Positions 4,940 through 13,919 of a stretch of 64,000 nucleotides of DNA are shown here, piece by piece; the first letter of the stretch is position 1; each line of letters starts with the position of its first letter. Source of the DNA: a virus; UHGV virus genome UHGV-1370141; one strand, given 5' to 3'. The position numbers and the translations under genes are program-made. The notes under the pieces were generated by a model that searched no databases, was not told the DNA's origin, and was given only the letters and a program-made list of their open reading frames with translations.

Positions 4940-5503
4940 ATGGCTAATACGCTATTAGGTAAATCAGGAAAACAACTGGTTTATGAGTTATTAGTAAAAA
5001 AGAATCCAGGTTTGGTAGAGAAAGGTATTACAATCGATAAATTGAATTTCGGCACGCCGTCACATATTCCTGCGGTAGAAACACCAGAAACTCAATTTAC
5101 GCGATTAAATACTCAACTTAGCGTCCAGGGTATCATCGAGCAGAAAACATTTGGTAAAATTGACGTTATTTATCGTCGGTTGGATTTAGAGCACCTGTTA
5201 GGTGACTTTGTAGTTTCTGTTGCGGGTGTTAATGCGGCTACGGTATCTGAGGTACTACAGCTTTTTCGCACTAAGTACAATTTGCAGATTACGGATGACG
5301 AAGTTGAGAACCCAACAGCTGCACCAGACAGCAGAGATAAAACCATCATTATCATGAACGGGAGATCTTTGGCTTGGACAGGTCAGTTGGAAGTGTACTT
5401 AACTGAACTGCCATCTGACGGTAAGGATATTTCGAAGCTGATTAAAGTTACCGAACTTGACGGTTTGACGTATATCTCTTCTGGAATTGTTCCTGGCGCT
5501 TAA
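4940..5503 (+). CDS. Hypothetical protein (187 aa)
   Basis: ORF starts 17 nt after the preceding stop; last gene before a bidirectional terminator. Confidence 0.5.
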   Translation: MANTLLGKSGKQLVYELLVKKNPGLVEKGITIDKLNFGTPSHIPAVETPETQFTRLNTQLSVQGIIEQKTFGKIDVIYRRLDLEHLLGDFVVSVAGVNAATVSEVLQLFRTKYNLQITDDEVENPTAAPDSRDKTIIIMNGRSLAWTGQLEVYLTELPSDGKDISKLIKVTELDGLTYISSGIVPGA

Positions 5504-5567
5504 AAAAAGAAAAAAAATAAGAAAGTTAACCTACCTCCTTTCGGAGGTAGGTACTTTTATTTATTTC
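5504..5567. terminator. Bidirectional rho-independent terminator (CCTACCTCC-tttc-GGAGGTAGG flanked by A-tract and T-tract)
   Basis: Perfect 9 bp stem with A-rich 5' flank and TACTTTTATTTATTT 3' flank, between convergent genes ending at 5503 (+) and 5561 (-). Confidence 0.6.
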
Positions 5568-6391
5568 GCCAAATCTGCTTCTTTTACAAAAATACCGTCA
5601 GCGTTCAGATAGCCTTTACGGTCTTTGATTTCGTGCCAGGCTAAAGAGAAGCAATGGCGAATGTCAAGACGATAGTAGAGAGCCAGTTTTGCAAGACGGT
5701 ACAAAGCCCAGTTAAGCTGATCGAAACCAGCATCGGAGCGAATAAATGCGGTAGCGAAGATTTCGGTAGCGTGGAGATACAGATGGTGCGGATACCCGTT
5801 GTCATCAAAATGTTCTTCAACGTCAGCGACATCATCCACCTGTAGCTGTAAACCGTGCTCGATGATCTCGGTGGTTGACATTTCTCCAGACAGTTTGTCT
5901 TTACCCAGTTCCAGGATGTTTACCAGAACCACTAACGCATCACCGATACCATCCATGATCAGTTCAGGTTTGTTTTTACTGATACCTGTTGCGATTTCAC
6001 CAAACTCTTCAAAGAATTTCGTGATTTGGGTTTCCAGTTTACCGTTATCGAGGATGCCGCGTTCTTTAGACCAGCCTTTAACATGTTCTGCACAGTTCGC
6101 AATAGAATAGACCGGAACCGATACGGTGTGCATTACTGTACCGTTATATTCGGCACCTGTAAGTTTAAGCGGCGCTTCAATCGTTTCGATGTCCAGTTCC
6201 TGATTACCGGTGTGGCGTTTACCTTCTACGCGAACACGGTTAGTACCAGGATTTACCCCGATGGTGTAGATAGCATCAAACTGAATCGCTTTCTCGTCCA
6301 TAGCGCGTAGTTGTGTGTTAACTTCGTCCAGGAAGTTACCTGGGTTAAGAACGATGTTGTAGATAGCGTTGATGTTAAAACGTTCGCCCAT
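5561..6391 (-). CDS. MazG-like (all-alpha NTP pyrophosphohydrolase) candidate
   Basis: Motif FFEEFGEIATG...PELIMDGIGDALVVLVNILEL resembles the MazG EExxE...ExxD signature; assignment from memory of the family only. Confidence 0.4.
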   Translation of the reverse strand: MGERFNINAIYNIVLNPGNFLDEVNTQLRAMDEKAIQFDAIYTIGVNPGTNRVRVEGKRHTGNQELDIETIEAPLKLTGAEYNGTVMHTVSVPVYSIANCAEHVKGWSKERGILDNGKLETQITKFFEEFGEIATGISKNKPELIMDGIGDALVVLVNILELGKDKLSGEMSTTEIIEHGLQLQVDDVADVEEHFDDNGYPHHLYLHATEIFATAFIRSDAGFDQLNWALYRLAKLALYYRLDIRHCFSLAWHEIKDRKGYLNADGIFVKEADLAK

Positions 6392-6602
6392 TTTAAAACT
6401 CCATTAGATTAAACAAAAAAAGAATAAAGATTAGGGGTGCTACATAAGCACCCCGTGAACTGTTAAATTTTGCAAGCCCCGCCTGAGCAGTTATCGTCTT
6501 CCGTAGTTGGGTCAGCACCCTTCTCTACGGTAGCTTCCGGGTCTAAGCCAGGGATTGCAAATTCGTCAGTTTCTTTAACGGTTTCTACTTTAACTTCTTC
6601 AG

Positions 6603-6827
6603 TCATTTTTTAGTTTCCAAATTTCTTACAAAGGGGTTAATAGTTTTGATTTTAAGGTTAGCGAACGGCGACAGAAGTTTCACCATCGGTGCTAGACCTG
6701 GCGGCGTCTCTTTATATCGCACGATGCGCACTTTCGATTTACCAGGACCCTTACGTACACGGTTGTAGCCAATAAAATATAGAGCACCTGTAAAGAATCT
6801 CAGGCTGTGAAATCGTGGTTTTTTCAT
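6603..6827 (-). CDS. Small basic hypothetical protein (74 aa)
   Basis: ORF in co-directional - strand block; very K/R-rich; no recognisable motif. Confidence 0.3.
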   Translation of the reverse strand: MKKPRFHSLRFFTGALYFIGYNRVRKGPGKSKVRIVRYKETPPGLAPMVKLLSPFANLKIKTINPFVRNLETKK

Positions 6828-6997
6828 CAGACATCCCCAAAAGCCAGAAAGCGTTTACGACCCTTGTGTGGTCCTTTACGCCAGCGACTAGCGATAGTTT
6901 TACGATTTACTTTGCAACGGATTCTCTTATTCAGATTGATATACTTTATAGTAACTTTAATGACATCATTCGTCATAAAGAATTCCCTCATCATTAA

Positions 6998-7444
6998 TTA
7001 ACCCATTAAATGGATTACAACGTCTTTAGTTACTGAGTTTGCAAGTAAGCGGAAGAACTTCATGTAACGGAACATGCTAAAGAAAACCCCAGCGTCATCT
7101 ACAATGACAAGGCTGTATTTTTCCTTTTCTGTACCCATTTGGTAACCGCTGATTTGTGTGATGTTTTCCGGTAAGTCTTCGAGACCCAAACGGAATAGCA
7201 CATCGTCCTCTAAGAACCCTTTTGGGCTAACGAACAACACTTTCCCTTTATGGTTCTTAGCTAACTCGACACCAAAGTCTGTAAGCCCCATCTGCCTACC
7301 TGTACCGTAGCGGATAGTACGAAATTCAGATAAGGCATTGGGACCATAACGATCGGTAAACGGATTATCTTTAGAATCCAGATCGGTTAAACCTTTTGAT
7401 AATTCTTCTACTACGATGTTATAGTTAACATGAGTTTTAGACAT
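6998..7444 (-). CDS. Hypothetical protein (148 aa)
   Basis: ORF in - strand block, 30 nt upstream of thyA. Confidence 0.4.
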   Translation of the reverse strand: MSKTHVNYNIVVEELSKGLTDLDSKDNPFTDRYGPNALSEFRTIRYGTGRQMGLTDFGVELAKNHKGKVLFVSPKGFLEDDVLFRLGLEDLPENITQISGYQMGTEKEKYSLVIVDDAGVFFSMFRYMKFFRLLANSVTKDVVIHLMG

Positions 7445-7474
7445 TTTATCATACCTTTTTAATTAGGTGGTAAT

Positions 7475-8515
7475 TTATACTGCGACGGGGGCCGCAATAT
7501 GTGGATGAGCTTGATAACCAACTAATTCGAAGTCTTCGTATTTGTAATCGAAGATAGAATCCGGTTTACGTTTGATAACCAGTTTAGGTAACGGGTAAGG
7601 CTCACGTGTAAGTTGAAGTTTTGCTTGTTCCAGATGGTTAGAATACAGATGAACGTCTACACCACTATAAACCAACTCGTCTGGAACCATGTTCAGTTGT
7701 TGAGCAACGATGTATGTTAACAACGCGTACGAAGCGATGTTGAACGGTAAACCTAAGAATACGTCGTTTGATCGCATCAGGAAGAAACACGAAAGCTTAC
7801 GACGCGGAATACCTTCACGATCTAAAGTTTCATGAAGTCGTTCTTCATCATCAATATCTTCGTGTTTAATAAGCGGTGCGCTCGCAAATTTTTCCGGTTC
7901 GTTTACTTCGTACCATTCCAGTCTCTCAAGCAGTGACATTTCCGTTGTGTAGAATTGGAAGTAGTTGTGACACGGGTTAAGTGCCATATCGTCCAAGTCA
8001 CTTACGTTCCAGGCACTAACAATAATACGGCGGGAGTCAGGGTCTTCGAGAAGTTGTTGGATAACTTTGCTGATCTGGTCGTGAGATTTGCGATAAATAA
8101 CGATACTTTCTTCAGGGTTGTCCTTTGCAATAGTACCAACGTAGCGATAGCCTCGTTCTCTCAATACGTCTTTACTACGCTCGTCCCAAAGATAAACCAG
8201 TTTGGTATCCATCCATTCCCGCCACTGGTGTCCGTAGACAGGTCCTAATTCCCCTTCCGCATTCGCCCACTCGTTCCAGATTCTTACCCCATTCTCTTGC
8301 AGGTACTTCACGTTAGTGTCACCGTTCAAGAACCATAACAGTTCATGAATGATACTTTTCAGGTGAACCTTTTTCGTAGTAACTAATGGGAAACCTTCTT
8401 TCAGGTCAAAACGTAGTTGGCGACCAAATACAGAAAGTGTCCCTACACCTGTACGGTCTTTCTTAACAACGCCGTTATCCAGAATGTCTTGCATTAACGC
8501 TAAATACTGTTTCAT
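7475..8515 (-). CDS. thyA: Thymidylate synthase (ThyA type) with two insertions
   Basis: Near-identical blocks to E. coli ThyA: [87 protein letters not shown]. 346 aa versus 264 aa. Confidence 0.93.
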
Positions 8516-8823
8516 TAGATTTTGTCCTTTTCGAGTTCAGTTAAAATTTCAAATAGGTCTGCGTTGGATTGCAGTACGACTTCACTGCCTTCTGCTACAA
8601 CGGTAATTGAAGGCTTCTTACCACGTAGCAAGAACTCCCAACGCATTGTTCTTACGTGGCTGTCGAGTAACTGCTTTAATTTGTGGTTAACTTCGACTTC
8701 CAATTTGCCCAGTAACTGTGGTGTAATAGCTTCGCCTGAGTTTTTGTTATAAAGCGTACGCACTAAAGAACGTAAAGAATAGCCAATGCATTGCGAAATT
8801 GCCCAACCCGAATAGTTTTCCAT
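8515..8823 (-). CDS. Hypothetical protein (102 aa)
   Basis: ORF whose stop overlaps the thyA start (TAATG-type junction). Confidence 0.4.
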
Positions 8824-8824
8824 G

Positions 8825-9370
8825 TTAATCCTTCAAAATGTCTTTAAGCTTTAGTTTTGTATAGAACGGAGAACCGCTTAGTTCTTCTGTCCAACTTATA
8901 CGTCCGTTCTGTAGAACCCGGTCGAAGATTAGGCCGTACATCTTTACAATTCTGGCCAATTGATAAAAGAGCGTCGTGAGGTGTAACCGACGCTCCATTT
9001 GTGCACGGGCGGTACAACTGCGCACCGCTTTGATAGCAAGTACCGCTTCTGGCATCAACGTAAGCGCGATTGACTCAGGATGTTCATTTTTCCATTTCTT
9101 AATGGCTAGTAGTCGGTGTAAAGATTTTTCAAGGGGACGTAAATCCCCGTTATTCATCACGTAAACCAAAGCAGCAATATCCCACAAGGCAATACCTACT
9201 GCTTTAGCAACAAACAACCCGTCCTGTGTTGTCGTGGACTCACAGACTTTGCCAATACTTCCGTAAACACGTGCAGTCCATGCGTCTGTCTGTTCGCCAG
9301 GTTTTATACCCGCGTTATCCAGAAAGTGTTTAAACGCATTAACATGATCAGTTAACTGTATTTGTTTCAT
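8825..9370 (-). CDS. Hypothetical protein (181 aa)
   Basis: ORF tightly packed with neighbours on - strand. Confidence 0.4.
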   Translation of the reverse strand: MKQIQLTDHVNAFKHFLDNAGIKPGEQTDAWTARVYGSIGKVCESTTTQDGLFVAKAVGIALWDIAALVYVMNNGDLRPLEKSLHRLLAIKKWKNEHPESIALTLMPEAVLAIKAVRSCTARAQMERRLHLTTLFYQLARIVKMYGLIFDRVLQNGRISWTEELSGSPFYTKLKLKDILKD

Positions 9371-9384
9371 TTCCGATACCCGAT

Positions 9385-9849
9385 TTAGTCACGAGACTTT
9401 ATTTTAAGGTACGCAACCGCAGCTCCCATGATTGCAATACCGGCACCCCAACCTATCCTTTCTATTACACTCATATCGTCCCATCTTTTCTCTTCGTTAC
9501 GTCGTTTGGCCTCGTCTGCCCGTTCTCTCCACATCGCTTCGCGTTCCAGACAGCTGGGATTTATTTCCTCTTCACAACGACGTTTCCGTTCTTCTTCCCC
9601 AATCAGTTCTTCTAAATAGAGTCTCGTTTCTTCCACAGCTTGCTCATAGACGTCTATGCGATCGGGAAGAATTCTCCTGTGAGAGGCTTTGTTGCGAACG
9701 GAAGCAATCATGTGGAGTTTCCGTTCGTATTTTGGTTCGAGAAGATAGGCTATGCTTTTGGTCTTCTCATGAAGTCCACGACCAGTACCGCCGAGTTTTT
9801 CCACAAGTTCTTCTACAGAAATTGCAAGATCGAGAATATATCCACGCAT
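9385..9849 (-). CDS. Hypothetical protein with R-x4-H (HEPN-like) motif, charged coiled-coil region and C-terminal TM anchor
   Basis: Start moved to internal Met (MRGYILDL) to avoid overlap with the upstream gene; motif ASVRNKASHR; C-terminal IGWGAGIAIMGAAVAYL hydrophobic helix. Confidence 0.35.
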   Translation of the reverse strand: MRGYILDLAISVEELVEKLGGTGRGLHEKTKSIAYLLEPKYERKLHMIASVRNKASHRRILPDRIDVYEQAVEETRLYLEELIGEEERKRRCEEEINPSCLEREAMWRERADEAKRRNEEKRWDDMSVIERIGWGAGIAIMGAAVAYLKIKSRD

Positions 9850-9909
9850 AATTGTTTCTCCGCTTAAACGCAGTCTTGGGAGACATAAGTTTGTTCCCAA
9901 CTGTAAAAA

Positions 9910-10278
9910 TCATTTCAACAAAACAAGATGAATTTGGTATTCGTCATCCGCAGGAGAAGAATAGTCGCCGGTTTCAGGAAACGATAAATCCCCTAGTAGA
10001 CTGTGGAAGGATAATCCGTGTACAGCTTCAACTTTTCGTACAAGCGGAAAACCTGTTCTTTTAATCCAATTGTAATCGACAAACAAAACACCACCAGGAC
10101 TTCCCGAACCTGACCACACGCGAATGTCCACAGTCTTTCCTGAGAAGTTGGCAAGTACAGTGCGCAGTCCTAATAGCACATAACGGGGGAAGGGTACTTC
10201 AATAACTTGTTTTGGTAAAACAAATTCAGGGAATTTAAAACCGAAACCGTTGGGGGTATTAAAAAATTGAGCTTGCAT
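9910..10278 (-). CDS. Hypothetical protein (122 aa)
   Basis: ORF in - block; first gene after an upstream terminator. Confidence 0.35.
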   Translation of the reverse strand: MQAQFFNTPNGFGFKFPEFVLPKQVIEVPFPRYVLLGLRTVLANFSGKTVDIRVWSGSGSPGGVLFVDYNWIKRTGFPLVRKVEAVHGLSFHSLLGDLSFPETGDYSSPADDEYQIHLVLLK

Positions 10279-10295
10279 GGTAATTCTCCTTTAGG

Positions 10296-10336
10296 GTAAA
10301 AAATAAAAATACCCTACTCCCAGACAGGAGTAGGGT
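10296..10336 (-). terminator. Rho-independent terminator (CCCTACTCC-cagaca-GGAGTAGGG plus T-tract on - strand)
   Basis: Inverted repeat followed, on the - strand, by a U-run (plus-strand AAAAATAAAAAT); immediately after the stop of 10342..11001. Confidence 0.5.
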
Positions 10337-10341
10337 AGGTG

Positions 10342-11001
10342 TTACATACGGGTAACTGAATCCCAGTAATCACGAAGATATTCTTGGTCTTCAGGATCTT
10401 TTGGCGTAGCCGGAATATGGCCGTCAAACTCAAACGGAATCACGGACAACACATCCGCAATCTCGTAACGCTCGACTTCCAGTTCAACTTTCACCCAGTC
10501 ACCAACGCTGGTGCTACTACGCATCTCGGTGATAAGATCGTTAAAGTCACCTGAAACTTCAATGGCAGGGTGTCCGGTGGTGATTGTGAAAATATCAATA
10601 TCCCAATGCTTAGCCCCTTTATCGGCTAATTCACCCGGCTCTAAGTGAATACGTTTCACCAGGTGTGCCAAATAACCGTCTTTGTAAAAAGAGAGTGCGG
10701 AACTAATCCCGATATCCGAATTCTCTTCAACCTTTCCGTCCAGGAATTTACGCTTAAGCGTTAGCTGTGCCGTTCCGTCTTCTTTAATACGGATACGACG
10801 ACGCCCACCTTCTATCGGCATGAGAATGTCCATGAACATCTTGGCTTCTTGTGCGTGGAGCCAATCCCATCCCGCTTGCGTCGGTTTTACCCAAACGCAG
10901 TATTCCTTTTCGACTTCGTGTTTAATGGACTCACCAGCAACACGAATGATTTCTTCTTCCTGCGCTTTATCCAGCCGCGCTAGGGTATCGAACAATCCCA
11001 T
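10342..11001 (-). CDS. CYTH-like (triphosphate tunnel) domain candidate
   Basis: N-terminal EVEKEY resembles the CYTH ExExK start; RRRIRIK and LTLKRK basic strands; VELEVERYEI acidic strand. Low confidence. Confidence 0.3.
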   Translation of the reverse strand: MGLFDTLARLDKAQEEEIIRVAGESIKHEVEKEYCVWVKPTQAGWDWLHAQEAKMFMDILMPIEGGRRRIRIKEDGTAQLTLKRKFLDGKVEENSDIGISSALSFYKDGYLAHLVKRIHLEPGELADKGAKHWDIDIFTITTGHPAIEVSGDFNDLITEMRSSTSVGDWVKVELEVERYEIADVLSVIPFEFDGHIPATPKDPEDQEYLRDYWDSVTRM

Positions 11002-11822
11002 TAGATTAATCCCATACGTTCACTGACGTCCGTAATATCGAACGTCGAGTCGTTATAGTCGATGTTTTCTACAATAGAAATCACCAGATTAGGAAGCCAT
11101 TCAGAATGTAGTGGTGTAATCACCCGACCGTTCATGACGTAATAATGCAAGAACGGAAGATTCATCGAATGGCAGTAAGACAGGGTATTACCTAAACAAG
11201 ACCCGTCGTATTGCAATAGGTGCAACTTACGCAGCAGTGCATTCTTAAATGCACCAGTCGCGTAGCTACTAAACTCACCGGGACGGTAATCCGTTTTCCC
11301 GTAAATTGCCGCTTTTAATCGACGACCTAACTGAATACATTCCGTACCCGTTAACGTACGTAAACGAAGAATATCAGGAAATTCAGTCTCCAGACGTCCC
11401 ATCGTTTTAATCGAGTAACCCATGTGTAACATGTAGTCAACGATACGCAAGTAGTGATAGTAACCTTCCAACGTCAGGAACTGACCGTGTATCGTGTCAA
11501 ATTTTGACCCGTCGGGTTTCGCGTAGAAGTTACTGATCATCTTACCCACGGTAGTACGACCGTTGGAGTAAAAGTTGATGTGGTTCACCCCATCGGTAAA
11601 CGGGAGTTGTTCAGGTAAAGCACAAACATAGCCTAACCGTCTCAGGTATAGGACATAAGCAAGGCGCTCATCAGGCGTGAGTACAATGCTTGACGCGTTC
11701 ACGTAGGATTTAGAACGTAAATCGCCCGGCGCATAACCGAGCGTTAAAGCCAATGATTGAATGTCTTCACTTTGACTTTTGATTTTCTTTAATACGGAGC
11801 GCAGTAATTGTGGTTCGGACAT
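11001..11822 (-). CDS. Hypothetical protein (about 273 aa)
   Basis: Start set at internal Met (MSEPQLL) to remove overlap with the upstream gene stop. Confidence 0.4.
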   Translation of the reverse strand: MSEPQLLRSVLKKIKSQSEDIQSLALTLGYAPGDLRSKSYVNASSIVLTPDERLAYVLYLRRLGYVCALPEQLPFTDGVNHINFYSNGRTTVGKMISNFYAKPDGSKFDTIHGQFLTLEGYYHYLRIVDYMLHMGYSIKTMGRLETEFPDILRLRTLTGTECIQLGRRLKAAIYGKTDYRPGEFSSYATGAFKNALLRKLHLLQYDGSCLGNTLSYCHSMNLPFLHYYVMNGRVITPLHSEWLPNLVISIVENIDYNDSTFDITDVSERMGLI

Positions 11823-11832
11823 ATCCGGCCTC

Positions 11833-13107
11833 TTAGATTGCAAAGTAGTCTTCCACGATTTCATCGGTAGACTGATAACTTACACTACCTGCCGCTAAAA
11901 CGTAGTTACGTTTTTCGGTGGTCATCAGCGCTTGTATCGCGTTAGCGCCTGCGTAAGTATAAAGTTTCAGTTCAGTGGTTTCGGGAGTAACGTTTTTCGT
12001 TTTATCCCATTTGGCATCCAGTGCTTTAAACAACGCTAACATTCGTGTCCCGTACGTACTAAAGCTCGTGCCGGTTTCCACACGCAAGTTAGCCATGATG
12101 TTTTGAATCACGGTTTCCGCAATCTGTTTGCCCTGACCTTCCTGAAGTTTGCCCAGGTAATACTCTGTTGAGTCCAAGTTGCCGGTAGCAGCAGCTTGAA
12201 TCATCAACTCCCCGTAAAGCGCCTCTTTTGCTTGATCGTCACTGATAGCCTGAATCATCGGGTCGATTTTTGCAGGCAATCCGTAACTGTTAAGTTTCGT
12301 AGACAGACCGTAGATCAACGCAGACGACGTGTTAATGTCTAACGCTGAAAAACTGTCACTGCCTTTGAAACTGTTAATCAAGTTGTCGATGGCTAAGAAA
12401 TCGTCAAGGTCTTTATAGCTGTCAAACGTGTGTTGTACGTCATCAATAACTGAGGTTATCTGGTAACGCATACTGTTGACTTCAGACATAAAGTTGTTGA
12501 CTTCATGACTGATTTCTGAAGGAAGCTTAGCCAGTTGACCTGCGATATTCAGCGTTCCTTCGAGACGCTTCTTCACGGAGGAGAAGTCAGTACCGATTCC
12601 TGACAGAAAAGAATCACTCAGCGACGAAAGGCTGTCCCAACCTTTGCCCAGTAAACTTCCTGAGTCACCGGGTGACAGATACCCTAGTGCTTTAAGCCCT
12701 TCCTCATTAACCTTTTTGAAAGGTTCTGAAACATCACGCTTCTGCGGATCGAGAACAGGTAGTGTCTCTTTAGTGTTAGAAGCAAACCCAGGAACTTTTT
12801 GTCCTGGGGAAACACCGGAGGTGGAGCTGCCTGCTGTTTTGGTACCCCCTACGCTGGCAATGTCACTACCACCGAACAGGTTACCGATTTTTGAGGTCAG
12901 TTCACTTCCACCGCTGATGAGTTTGTTAAAGGTTTCACCAGCACGATCGGAAAGCTGACTGACTTTATCTACGGTATTCTGAATGCCACGTTCGGCGTTC
13001 TCTACCGTAGATTGTACTCGGTTAACCGCATTCTTCGCGGTATTAACCGAGTTGTCGATAGCCGATTGACCTTTGTTAATCTGGCCGGTTATCTGATCGA
13101 GTTTCAT
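11833..13107 (-). CDS. Hypothetical protein (424 aa), N-terminal coiled coil, S/G-rich middle
   Basis: Long ORF; heptad-like N-terminus (QINKGQSAIDNSVNTAKNAVNRVQSTVENAERGIQNTV). Confidence 0.45.
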   Translation of the reverse strand: MKLDQITGQINKGQSAIDNSVNTAKNAVNRVQSTVENAERGIQNTVDKVSQLSDRAGETFNKLISGGSELTSKIGNLFGGSDIASVGGTKTAGSSTSGVSPGQKVPGFASNTKETLPVLDPQKRDVSEPFKKVNEEGLKALGYLSPGDSGSLLGKGWDSLSSLSDSFLSGIGTDFSSVKKRLEGTLNIAGQLAKLPSEISHEVNNFMSEVNSMRYQITSVIDDVQHTFDSYKDLDDFLAIDNLINSFKGSDSFSALDINTSSALIYGLSTKLNSYGLPAKIDPMIQAISDDQAKEALYGELMIQAAATGNLDSTEYYLGKLQEGQGKQIAETVIQNIMANLRVETGTSFSTYGTRMLALFKALDAKWDKTKNVTPETTELKLYTYAGANAIQALMTTEKRNYVLAAGSVSYQSTDEIVEDYFAI

Positions 13108-13919
13108 TCTGTACTCCGAAATTGATAAGCCTCGAGGTCAACCGTGTGAACGACTTCGTAAATCTTGTTGTCGTTTTTGCGTTTTAACGTCAACAGAATG
13201 TCGAATTTCTTCACATCAATCGCCTTGAGTATCCTCATAAACCATTTCCAAGACAGCTTCTTTTTCAGTCGCATGTTGTGCTGCATATTGTGCCGCATGT
13301 CGTTGCGTTTAGAAGCGATAGGAAGACAGTTCTCTGGATTATTAACATAGTTCGTTGAAAGTCGATGCCACCAATCCGAAGTCATTTTGATATTCGCAAA
13401 GATTGTCCACAGGAGTCTCGAAAGGGGGTGTTCCATCGTCTTTGCTGTCCCCGCACAATCTCGGAAGAAACGATTTAATTCCGTACTGGCACTGGCCGTC
13501 GGTTTCTCGTTACAGTCTTCAAAATCGTAGCGGATAAGATCGTCACGCACTCGTGTGGTGACTTCAGAAATGGTTTTTGTCTGGAAACGTCCACGGTAAG
13601 TCGTTATACAGATTCTTAACGATTCTACTCCGGTAATCACTAACCCTTCCGTGAAACCTCGCCACGTAAGGTCAACTGGTAAGTCACGGTTGTTACCTGA
13701 GGTAAGTTTCGTTGAGATGCGTTGTACTCGATCTTCGAGAACGGCCTTCGAACGTGTGCGGAAATCAGGGGACAGGATGTGTCTTGCAACTGCAAGCTTA
13801 TAATCTTTAGGTTCCCACCCAATCTGAGTTTTATATTCCCAGTAAAGTTTTTGCAACGGTTTACCCGCACGTTCTTCTTCGTCTCGTTGCAGTTTTGCTT
13901 TTGCTTCGTTATCCATCAC
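13104..13919 (-). CDS. Hypothetical protein (271 aa)
   Basis: ORF with 4-nt stop/start overlap with the downstream gene. Confidence 0.45.
   Translation of the reverse strand: MMDNEAKAKLQRDEEERAGKPLQKLYWEYKTQIGWEPKDYKLAVARHILSPDFRTRSKAVLEDRVQRISTKLTSGNNRDLPVDLTWRGFTEGLVITGVESLRICITTYRGRFQTKTISEVTTRVRDDLIRYDFEDCNEKPTASASTELNRFFRDCAGTAKTMEHPLSRLLWTIFANIKMTSDWWHRLSTNYVNNPENCLPIASKRNDMRHNMQHNMRLKKKLSWKWFMRILKAIDVKKFDILLTLKRKNDNKIYEVVHTVDLEAYQFRSTE

Follow-up and report, generated by a model that had tools for sequence, protein, structure and literature searches.

A CYTH-like protein encoded near thyA in an SPN3US-type jumbo phage is a candidate capsid-loaded triphosphate tunnel metalloenzyme

The internal head proteins of phage T4 (IPI-III and Alt) carry a short cleavable targeting peptide and are processed by the prohead protease; the free protein left in the head may then leave it together with the DNA at ejection. 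In nucleus-forming jumbo phages, the protein ejected along with the DNA amounts to tens of megadaltons, most of it without known function. In SPN3US, a jumbo phage of Salmonella, gp225 was identified by mass spectrometry as a head protein, present in whole virions and in tailless heads (PMC10052503 and its supplement). The same work adds gp225 to the substrates of the prohead protease gp245, which removes from it a 24-residue propeptide at an AXE motif; gp245 cuts directly after AXE, favouring Val at P4 and Ser at P1' (PMC10052503). Here we describe an orthologue of gp225 in a 64,000-nucleotide stretch of the virus genome UHGV-1370141, hereafter the window. The orthologue belongs to a run of minus-strand genes (5561-11001) that also contains thyA, and a first-pass annotation of this run had proposed, at low confidence, that two nucleoside triphosphate (NTP)-handling folds, MazG-like and CYTH-like, lie in the thyA neighbourhood. 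Both are indeed found there: the peptides on which the proposal was based are all located in open reading frames (ORFs) of 276 and 219 amino acids (aa). Our best explanation of the region as a whole, to which we assign a probability of about 0.6, is that an SPN3US-type (nucleus-forming) jumbo phage here has a patchwork of genes rather than a single module. On this explanation, thyA and the MazG-like gene would have a deoxynucleoside triphosphate (dNTP) role, and the 219-aa CYTH-like protein would be, as its modelled fold suggests, a genuine triphosphate tunnel metalloenzyme (TTM), a hydrolase packaged in the capsid and ejected. Two features are central to this explanation:

10342-11001, minus strand: CYTH-like protein of 219 aa with a predicted TTM fold, orthologue of the SPN3US head protein gp225
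10930-11001, minus strand: predicted 24-residue N-terminal propeptide, with the cleavage site V21-A22-G23-E24 followed by S25, assigned from gp225 orthology and conservation of the site

The CYTH-like protein is 58% identical to SPN3US_0225 (gp225). Cutting gp225 after VARE24, before the following Ser, gives a computed mature mass of 22.32 kDa, compared with a published value of 22.3 kDa (PMC10052503). The AXE motif is retained in the family: 37 of 38 homologues have A-x-E-S in the matching position, and residues 17-24 are the only segment of a structural model of the window protein in which the predicted local distance difference test (pLDDT) falls below 50. A suitable protease exists in the lineage: positions 5000-12000 of the window are ~94% identical to circular 'plasmids' of ~222 kb (NZ_CP173450.1 and NZ_CP134650.1), and a 222-kb relative with this level of identity carries the gene for an S80 prohead protease that shares 81% identity with gp245. 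Because of these features, together with the presence of gp225 in heads, the CYTH-like protein is most likely a capsid-loaded, protease-trimmed TTM that probably enters the cell along with the DNA. As with gp225, it would be loaded into the prohead, trimmed between AXE and Ser and stored in the capsid. The trimmed protein would then be ejected together with the DNA and the virion RNA polymerase, to act in the first moments of infection as a metal-dependent hydrolase of a triphosphate-bearing substrate; candidates are 5'-triphosphate RNA, NTPs, and tripolyphosphate or pyrophosphate. In T4-type internal proteins and in gp225, an S80-family prohead protease cleaves off a short N-terminal propeptide at a motif that ends in Glu; what distinguishes the window protein from the T4 type is its cargo, a modelled TTM hydrolase fold, and we encountered no phage internal protein so reported.

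The fold itself is recognized through structure. The protein has no CYTH match in Pfam or NCBIfam; PF01928 was not matched at E<=10 by any of 38 family members, nor at E<=1 by any of 10 distant representatives. Searches of PDB sequences, with the single sequence and with a profile, returned chance-level matches only, and an hhalign comparison of the family with the CYTH domain of E. coli YgiF was not significant (probability 2.3%). An exhaustive hidden Markov model (HMM) search of 1.84 billion representatives recovered 28 cluster representatives of the family at E<=0.001, and none of the 10 distant representatives scanned bridges it to a Pfam CYTH match. An AlphaFold2 model built from a 38-sequence alignment reached a pLDDT of 87.9 and has the closed antiparallel beta-barrel tunnel that marks membership of the TTM superfamily. 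When predicted viral structures were searched with this model, the best matches were CYTH proteins of the Ralstonia jumbo phages RP12, RSL2 and RSF1; the best fold matches lie in the bacterial CYTH branch (BH2851, YgiF), not in the Cet1 branch.

The residues expected of a TTM tunnel are also in place. In a 25-member alignment that reaches down to 19% identity, the invariant positions are E31, E33, R69, R71, K83, E92, K171 and E173; conservation is at least 90% at T81, R117, D136 and E175. These residues occupy i/i+2 positions on predicted strands, and in the model each of the eight tunnel strands carries an invariant inward-facing Glu, Asp, Arg or Lys. The order of the motifs is colinear with that of E. 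coli YgiF (ExE / RxR / TxK / ExN / R / DxD-type / ExE). A TTM fold could have been recruited for a non-catalytic purpose inside the head, such as polyanion or DNA binding or scaffolding. We consider this rather unlikely, as the set of metal-binding Glu and phosphate-binding Arg/Lys residues is invariant across members that are only 19-30% identical, an invariance that is hard to account for unless a triphosphate-like ligand is bound. Far less probable still is a role as a class IV (CyaB-like) adenylate cyclase, injected so that cyclic AMP rises in the host: class IV cyclases are not the best fold matches, and most characterised CYTH proteins are hydrolases.

Compared with bacterial CYTH/TTM proteins (BH2851, 2gfg; YgiF, 5a61; NE1496, 3typ), the window protein escapes the Pfam CYTH HMM and PDB sequence searches, has the Lys of ExExK replaced by Cys, Val, Ser or Thr, and has an invariant Lys171 on the last tunnel strand. 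It also differs in its predicted cleavable N-terminal propeptide, in having an orthologue in the capsid and in the narrowness of its family. By the two marks of the strict CYTH family, a PF01928 profile match and the ExExK lysine, it does not belong there, and because the lysine is missing we file it as a divergent clade of the TTM superfamily. The first-pass call of a CYTH-like protein thus holds at the level of structure prediction and fold search, where it becomes a TTM assignment, but not at the level of sequence HMMs or of the lysine. The call is not in itself new, because homologues are already labelled 'CYTH domain-containing protein' in two databases and because MazG-like proteins and CYTH triphosphatases have been noted as scattered through jumbo phages (Iyer et al. 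2021, PMC7824862). In the literature searched, no paper connects the SPN3US head protein gp225 with the CYTH/TTM fold. What is new is a divergent TTM clade that lacks the ExExK lysine, has a predicted capsid-targeting propeptide and belongs to the same family as a published head protein.

Distant members of the family occur in other settings. In Vibrio phage pVa-21 (L029, 4244-6687), a TTM-family gene is translationally coupled to a gene for a B-family DNA polymerase (PolB), and this Vibrio phage PolB has no homologue in the window. In a metagenomic locus (L022, 9500-11644), the TTM-family domain is part of a fusion protein that also comprises a transmembrane segment, a linker rich in Gly and Pro and a ~400-aa helical domain. 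These varied settings give no common indication of the substrate.

Poxvirus and mimivirus virions contain the TTM triphosphatase domain of their capping enzymes, and a packaged phage TTM could similarly be an RNA 5'-triphosphatase, ejected with the virion RNA polymerase to trim the 5'-triphosphate ends of early phage transcripts. This assignment is doubtful, given that the best fold matches fall in the branch of BH2851 and YgiF and not with Cet1. Moreover, the capping-enzyme domains (4ckb, 2qy2) differ from the window protein, which at 22 kDa stands alone: no guanylyltransferase or methyltransferase is fused to it or was seen in its neighbourhood. On a wider view, which we offer as speculation, SPN3US-type phages would inject a capsid TTM with the virion RNA polymerase, and the enzyme would either process the 5'-triphosphates of the first transcripts or remove tripolyphosphate (PPPi), pyrophosphate (PPi) or a triphosphate-bearing immune nucleotide in the early infection compartment. 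If true, bacteriophages would have their own equivalent of the TTM triphosphatase that poxvirus virions carry as part of the capping enzyme.

The genes downstream of the CYTH-like gene, in order of increasing coordinate, are as follows:

5561-6391, minus strand: MazG-like NTP pyrophosphohydrolase (putative) of 276 aa, orthologue of SPN3US gp235
5939-6010, minus strand: metal-binding motif of its MazG domain, E128-E129-x-x-E132 ... D147-G-x-G-D151
6463-6606, minus strand: ORF of 47 aa
6603-6827, minus strand: ORF of 74 aa
6998-7444, minus strand: ORF of 148 aa
7475-8515, minus strand: thyA, 346 aa
8515-8823, minus strand: C-terminal half of a split MazG paralogue, 102 aa
8825-9370, minus strand: N-terminal half of the split MazG paralogue, 181 aa
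9385-9900, minus strand: ORF of 171 aa
9910-10278, minus strand: ORF of 122 aa

In the first-pass annotation, the MazG-like and CYTH-like proteins were thought to remodel host nucleotide pools or nucleotide-based signals. In its fullest form, this would make them co-expressed cytoplasmic enzymes of one ThyA module that reshapes nucleotide pools or destroys (p)ppGpp or cyclic oligonucleotides. The arrangement is suggestive, in that most SPN3US-like phages have these genes on one strand within 5.4 kb, and Iyer et al. 2021 propose that the MazG and CYTH triphosphatases of jumbo phages degrade unmodified NTPs (PMC7824862). We nevertheless judge a single module to be unlikely. Its CYTH-like member is orthologous to a head protein with a cleaved propeptide, and its gene neighbourhood points elsewhere: in 21 of 21 related SPN3US-like loci the CYTH-like gene follows homologues of the same three upstream genes, whereas three of these loci (L016, L020 and L021) lack both thyA and MazG in the 10 kb downstream and still keep the three upstream neighbours. 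Because the upstream block persists in loci without thyA and MazG, the CYTH-like gene is not tied to that pair. Within the window, the CYTH-like gene and thyA have other genes between them, and a further three (6463-6606, 6603-6827 and 6998-7444) lie between thyA and MazG. The suggestion that phage MazG acts on alarmones fares no better, as the one cyanophage enzyme that has been assayed is described as a pyrophosphohydrolase 'unable to hydrolyse magic spot nucleotides' (PMC6850273). The proposal of a shared function holds in part only: a nucleotide-pool role is probable for MazG and thyA, in the sense developed below; the CYTH-like partner, because gp225 is a processed head protein, is better regarded as virion-delivered than as a cytoplasmic pool enzyme beside ThyA.

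The conserved block upstream of the CYTH-like gene, which begins where the region covered by the first-pass annotation ends, comprises:

11001-11864, minus strand: putative NADAR-fold protein of 287 aa, orthologue of SPN3US gp224
11833-13107, minus strand: tail protein homologue of 424 aa, orthologue of SPN3US gp223
13104-13919, minus strand: ORF of 271 aa, upstream in the block

The NADAR-like and CYTH-like genes form a close pair, present in all 21 SPN3US-like loci; the NADAR-like stop codon overlaps the CYTH-like start codon or lies within 6 nucleotides of it in 10 of 10 loci inspected, with an overlap in the window. Phage NADARs (AdfN) reverse the DarT1 modification (PMC13309987; PMC11825919), and the TTM might accordingly act with its translationally coupled neighbour on ADP-ribose-linked substrates, for instance by countering DarT-type DNA ADP-ribosylation or by degrading nucleotides derived from ADP-ribose. 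Such a partnership seems improbable. SPN3US gp224 is absent from the virion protein list on which gp225 appears as a head protein (PMC10052503 supplement), so that the two products are probably separated in space and time, and no NADAR, MazG or thyA neighbour is present beside the distant family members (pVa-21, L022 and L023). The 287-aa protein itself has no Pfam NADAR match; unlike the NADAR hydrolases DarG1/AdfN and E. coli YbiA, it has Arg in place of the catalytic Lys, which in NADARs comes seven residues after the catalytic Glu, and it carries a long N-terminal extension. A 400-aa protein (P0174), considered as a possible NADAR-CYTH fusion, was rejected, as it does not join the two, and the paper on NARP3 has no bearing on either fold. 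The 424-aa protein is 63% identical to SPN3US_0223 and matches phrog_5028 at E=1e-123; SPN3US gp223 is given as a tail protein in the supplement of PMC10052503. Genes for tail, non-virion (NADAR-like) and head (TTM) proteins are thus interleaved within one tightly packed, co-oriented block.

Two domains make up the MazG-like protein: an N-terminal one (aa 1-95) without known function, and the MazG domain (aa 97-276), the latter with an insertion of ~70-75 aa between its first and last helices. It matches MazG-annotated PHROG families over its full length (phrog_7855, E=2e-72) and with phrog_1992 (E=4e-40) and phrog_715 (E=5e-26), the last being a minimal MazG family of 123 positions, and it is 43% identical to the SPN3US gene that carries the RefSeq annotation mazG. 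A tblastn search with the C-terminal domain led to small MazG-like genes in hundreds of phages; among such proteins, Haemophilus HP1 orf12 (24.6 bits) and the Staphylococcus Kayvirus NTP-PPase (27.4 bits) pass the cutoff of Pfam PF03819. The acidic residues E128, E129, E132, D147 and D151 are invariant both in an alignment of 8 jumbo-phage members and in one of 7 members that includes small phage MazG proteins. The D-G-x-G-D variant of the ExxD motif is common to phage MazG proteins above the Pfam threshold, and a C-terminal helix, 'EIKDRKG..dG.FVKE.D', is invariant in the joint alignment. A PDB profile search with a 3-sequence MazG alignment gave no match. On the strength of the PHROG matches and the invariant acidic motif, we accept the product of 5561-6391 as a putative all-alpha NTP pyrophosphohydrolase with an extra N-terminal domain and an internal insertion; the PHROG profiles support the first-pass MazG-like call, and that of Pfam PF03819 is matched below its cutoff. 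With the MazG proteins of cyanophages, the Kayvirus NTP-PPase and HP1 orf12, the window protein shares PHROG families, the core 'W..dRn....Q..KL.EE.GE ... D.iGD..VV' and the C-terminal helix; it differs from them in its additional 95-aa N-terminal domain and in the ~70-75-aa insertion. On a related 248-kb contig (L014, 13676-15079), the MazG homologue is 467 aa long, with a C-terminal addition of ~160 aa that the window protein lacks.

ThyA is assigned at family level by Pfam PF00303 (365 bits) and by NCBIfam NF002499 (410 bits, against a cutoff of 405). Its 346 aa include insertions of ~80 aa relative to the 266-position Pfam profile, ~45 aa of which separate the FQFY and KLSC strands. For L012 and L019, both related loci, the thyA match is limited to the N- or C-terminal part, which hints at an intervening sequence there. 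The thyA gene lies ~1.1 kb from the intact MazG gene and directly adjoins the split, degenerate paralogue. With its Mg-binding EExxE...DGxGD motif, the intact MazG would cleave (d)NTPs to the monophosphate and PPi; candidate substrates are dUTP and dCTP or non-canonical dNTPs, and cleavage would provide ThyA with dUMP and prevent unwanted dNTPs from entering phage DNA. Among 225 features in the PGAP annotation of the 222-kb relative, thyA, DHFR and an NT5C 5'-nucleotidase are present, and neither a dUTPase nor a dCMP deaminase is annotated. On the simplest view, MazG and thyA probably serve dTMP supply or dNTP sanitation, and this part of the locus is ordinary.

The split paralogue corresponds to a single gene of 289-319 aa in SPN3US (gp228, 289 aa), Asesino (gp250) and other phages, of which the ORFs 8825-9370 and 8515-8823 are the N- and C-terminal parts. 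The 181-aa half matches phrog_10269 at E=7e-10 and aa 7-153 of gp228; the 102-aa half matches positions 201-298 of phrog_10269 at E=2e-12 and aa 212-287 of gp228. A family-versus-family hhalign comparison identified the N-terminal domain of this family as homologous to the MazG domain (probability 96.9%, E=1.6e-10). The acidic motif has been lost, with EE changed to xL and DGxGD to AAGxG. A sequencing frameshift was considered as the source of the split and rejected: because the same two intact ORFs recur in three metagenomic relatives (L003-L005) and in the complete E. coli replicon NZ_CP173450.1, the split is real.

No close DNA relative of the window was found among deposited phages by megablast. 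At the protein level, the block is syntenic with SPN3US gp222-gp235, with the Erwinia phage Asesino and with relatives of both, all of them jumbo phages of ~240 kb. The ~222-kb 'plasmids' belong to the complete genomes of E. coli 98232, from human urine, and of Enterobacter ludwigii, from a gull; their PGAP annotation contains no integrase, replication-initiator or partition gene, which points to a jumbo phage in a carrier state or pseudolysogeny. Proteins with 94-100% identity are encoded on 220-226-kb contigs in many isolate assemblies of Salmonella, E. coli and Shigella. The 47-aa ORF at 6463-6606 matches PHROGs of unknown function; its last 30-34 residues (...DDNCSGGACKI) are 67-100% identical across SPN3US-like phages and are found in most related loci.

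Several observations weigh against our explanation of the region. Head packaging is documented for gp225, an orthologue at 58% identity, and not for this phage; ejection with the DNA is a step that we infer for gp225 as well. Because no sequence HMM recognises the CYTH-like protein, its CYTH/TTM assignment rests on predicted structure. The first motif reads E31-x-E33-Y-C35, with position 35 varying among Cys, Val, Ser and Thr family-wide, and loss of the ExExK lysine might alter or abolish catalysis. As for the MazG-like protein, PF03819 matches residues 120-173 at 19.6 bits, 2.4 under its 22-bit gathering cutoff, and the match is likewise below threshold in 7 of 8 orthologues. Finally, a dUTPase-like role for MazG is argued from missing annotation in a largely 'hypothetical' genome, and the argument is weak because most genes of the 222-kb relative are unannotated.

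That jumbo phages carry MazG and CYTH domains is already noted in the literature, and our analysis adds two unannotated players to this region, the putative NADAR-fold gene and the decayed MazG paralogue. It also indicates that proximity to thyA is no evidence for a shared role in nucleotide pools. With the predicted TTM structure, a published head protein of unknown function, SPN3US gp225, would gain, together with its relatives, a specific catalytic fold whose active-site constellation appears intact. This provides a testable idea about the chemistry that jumbo phages may bring into the cell ahead of gene expression.

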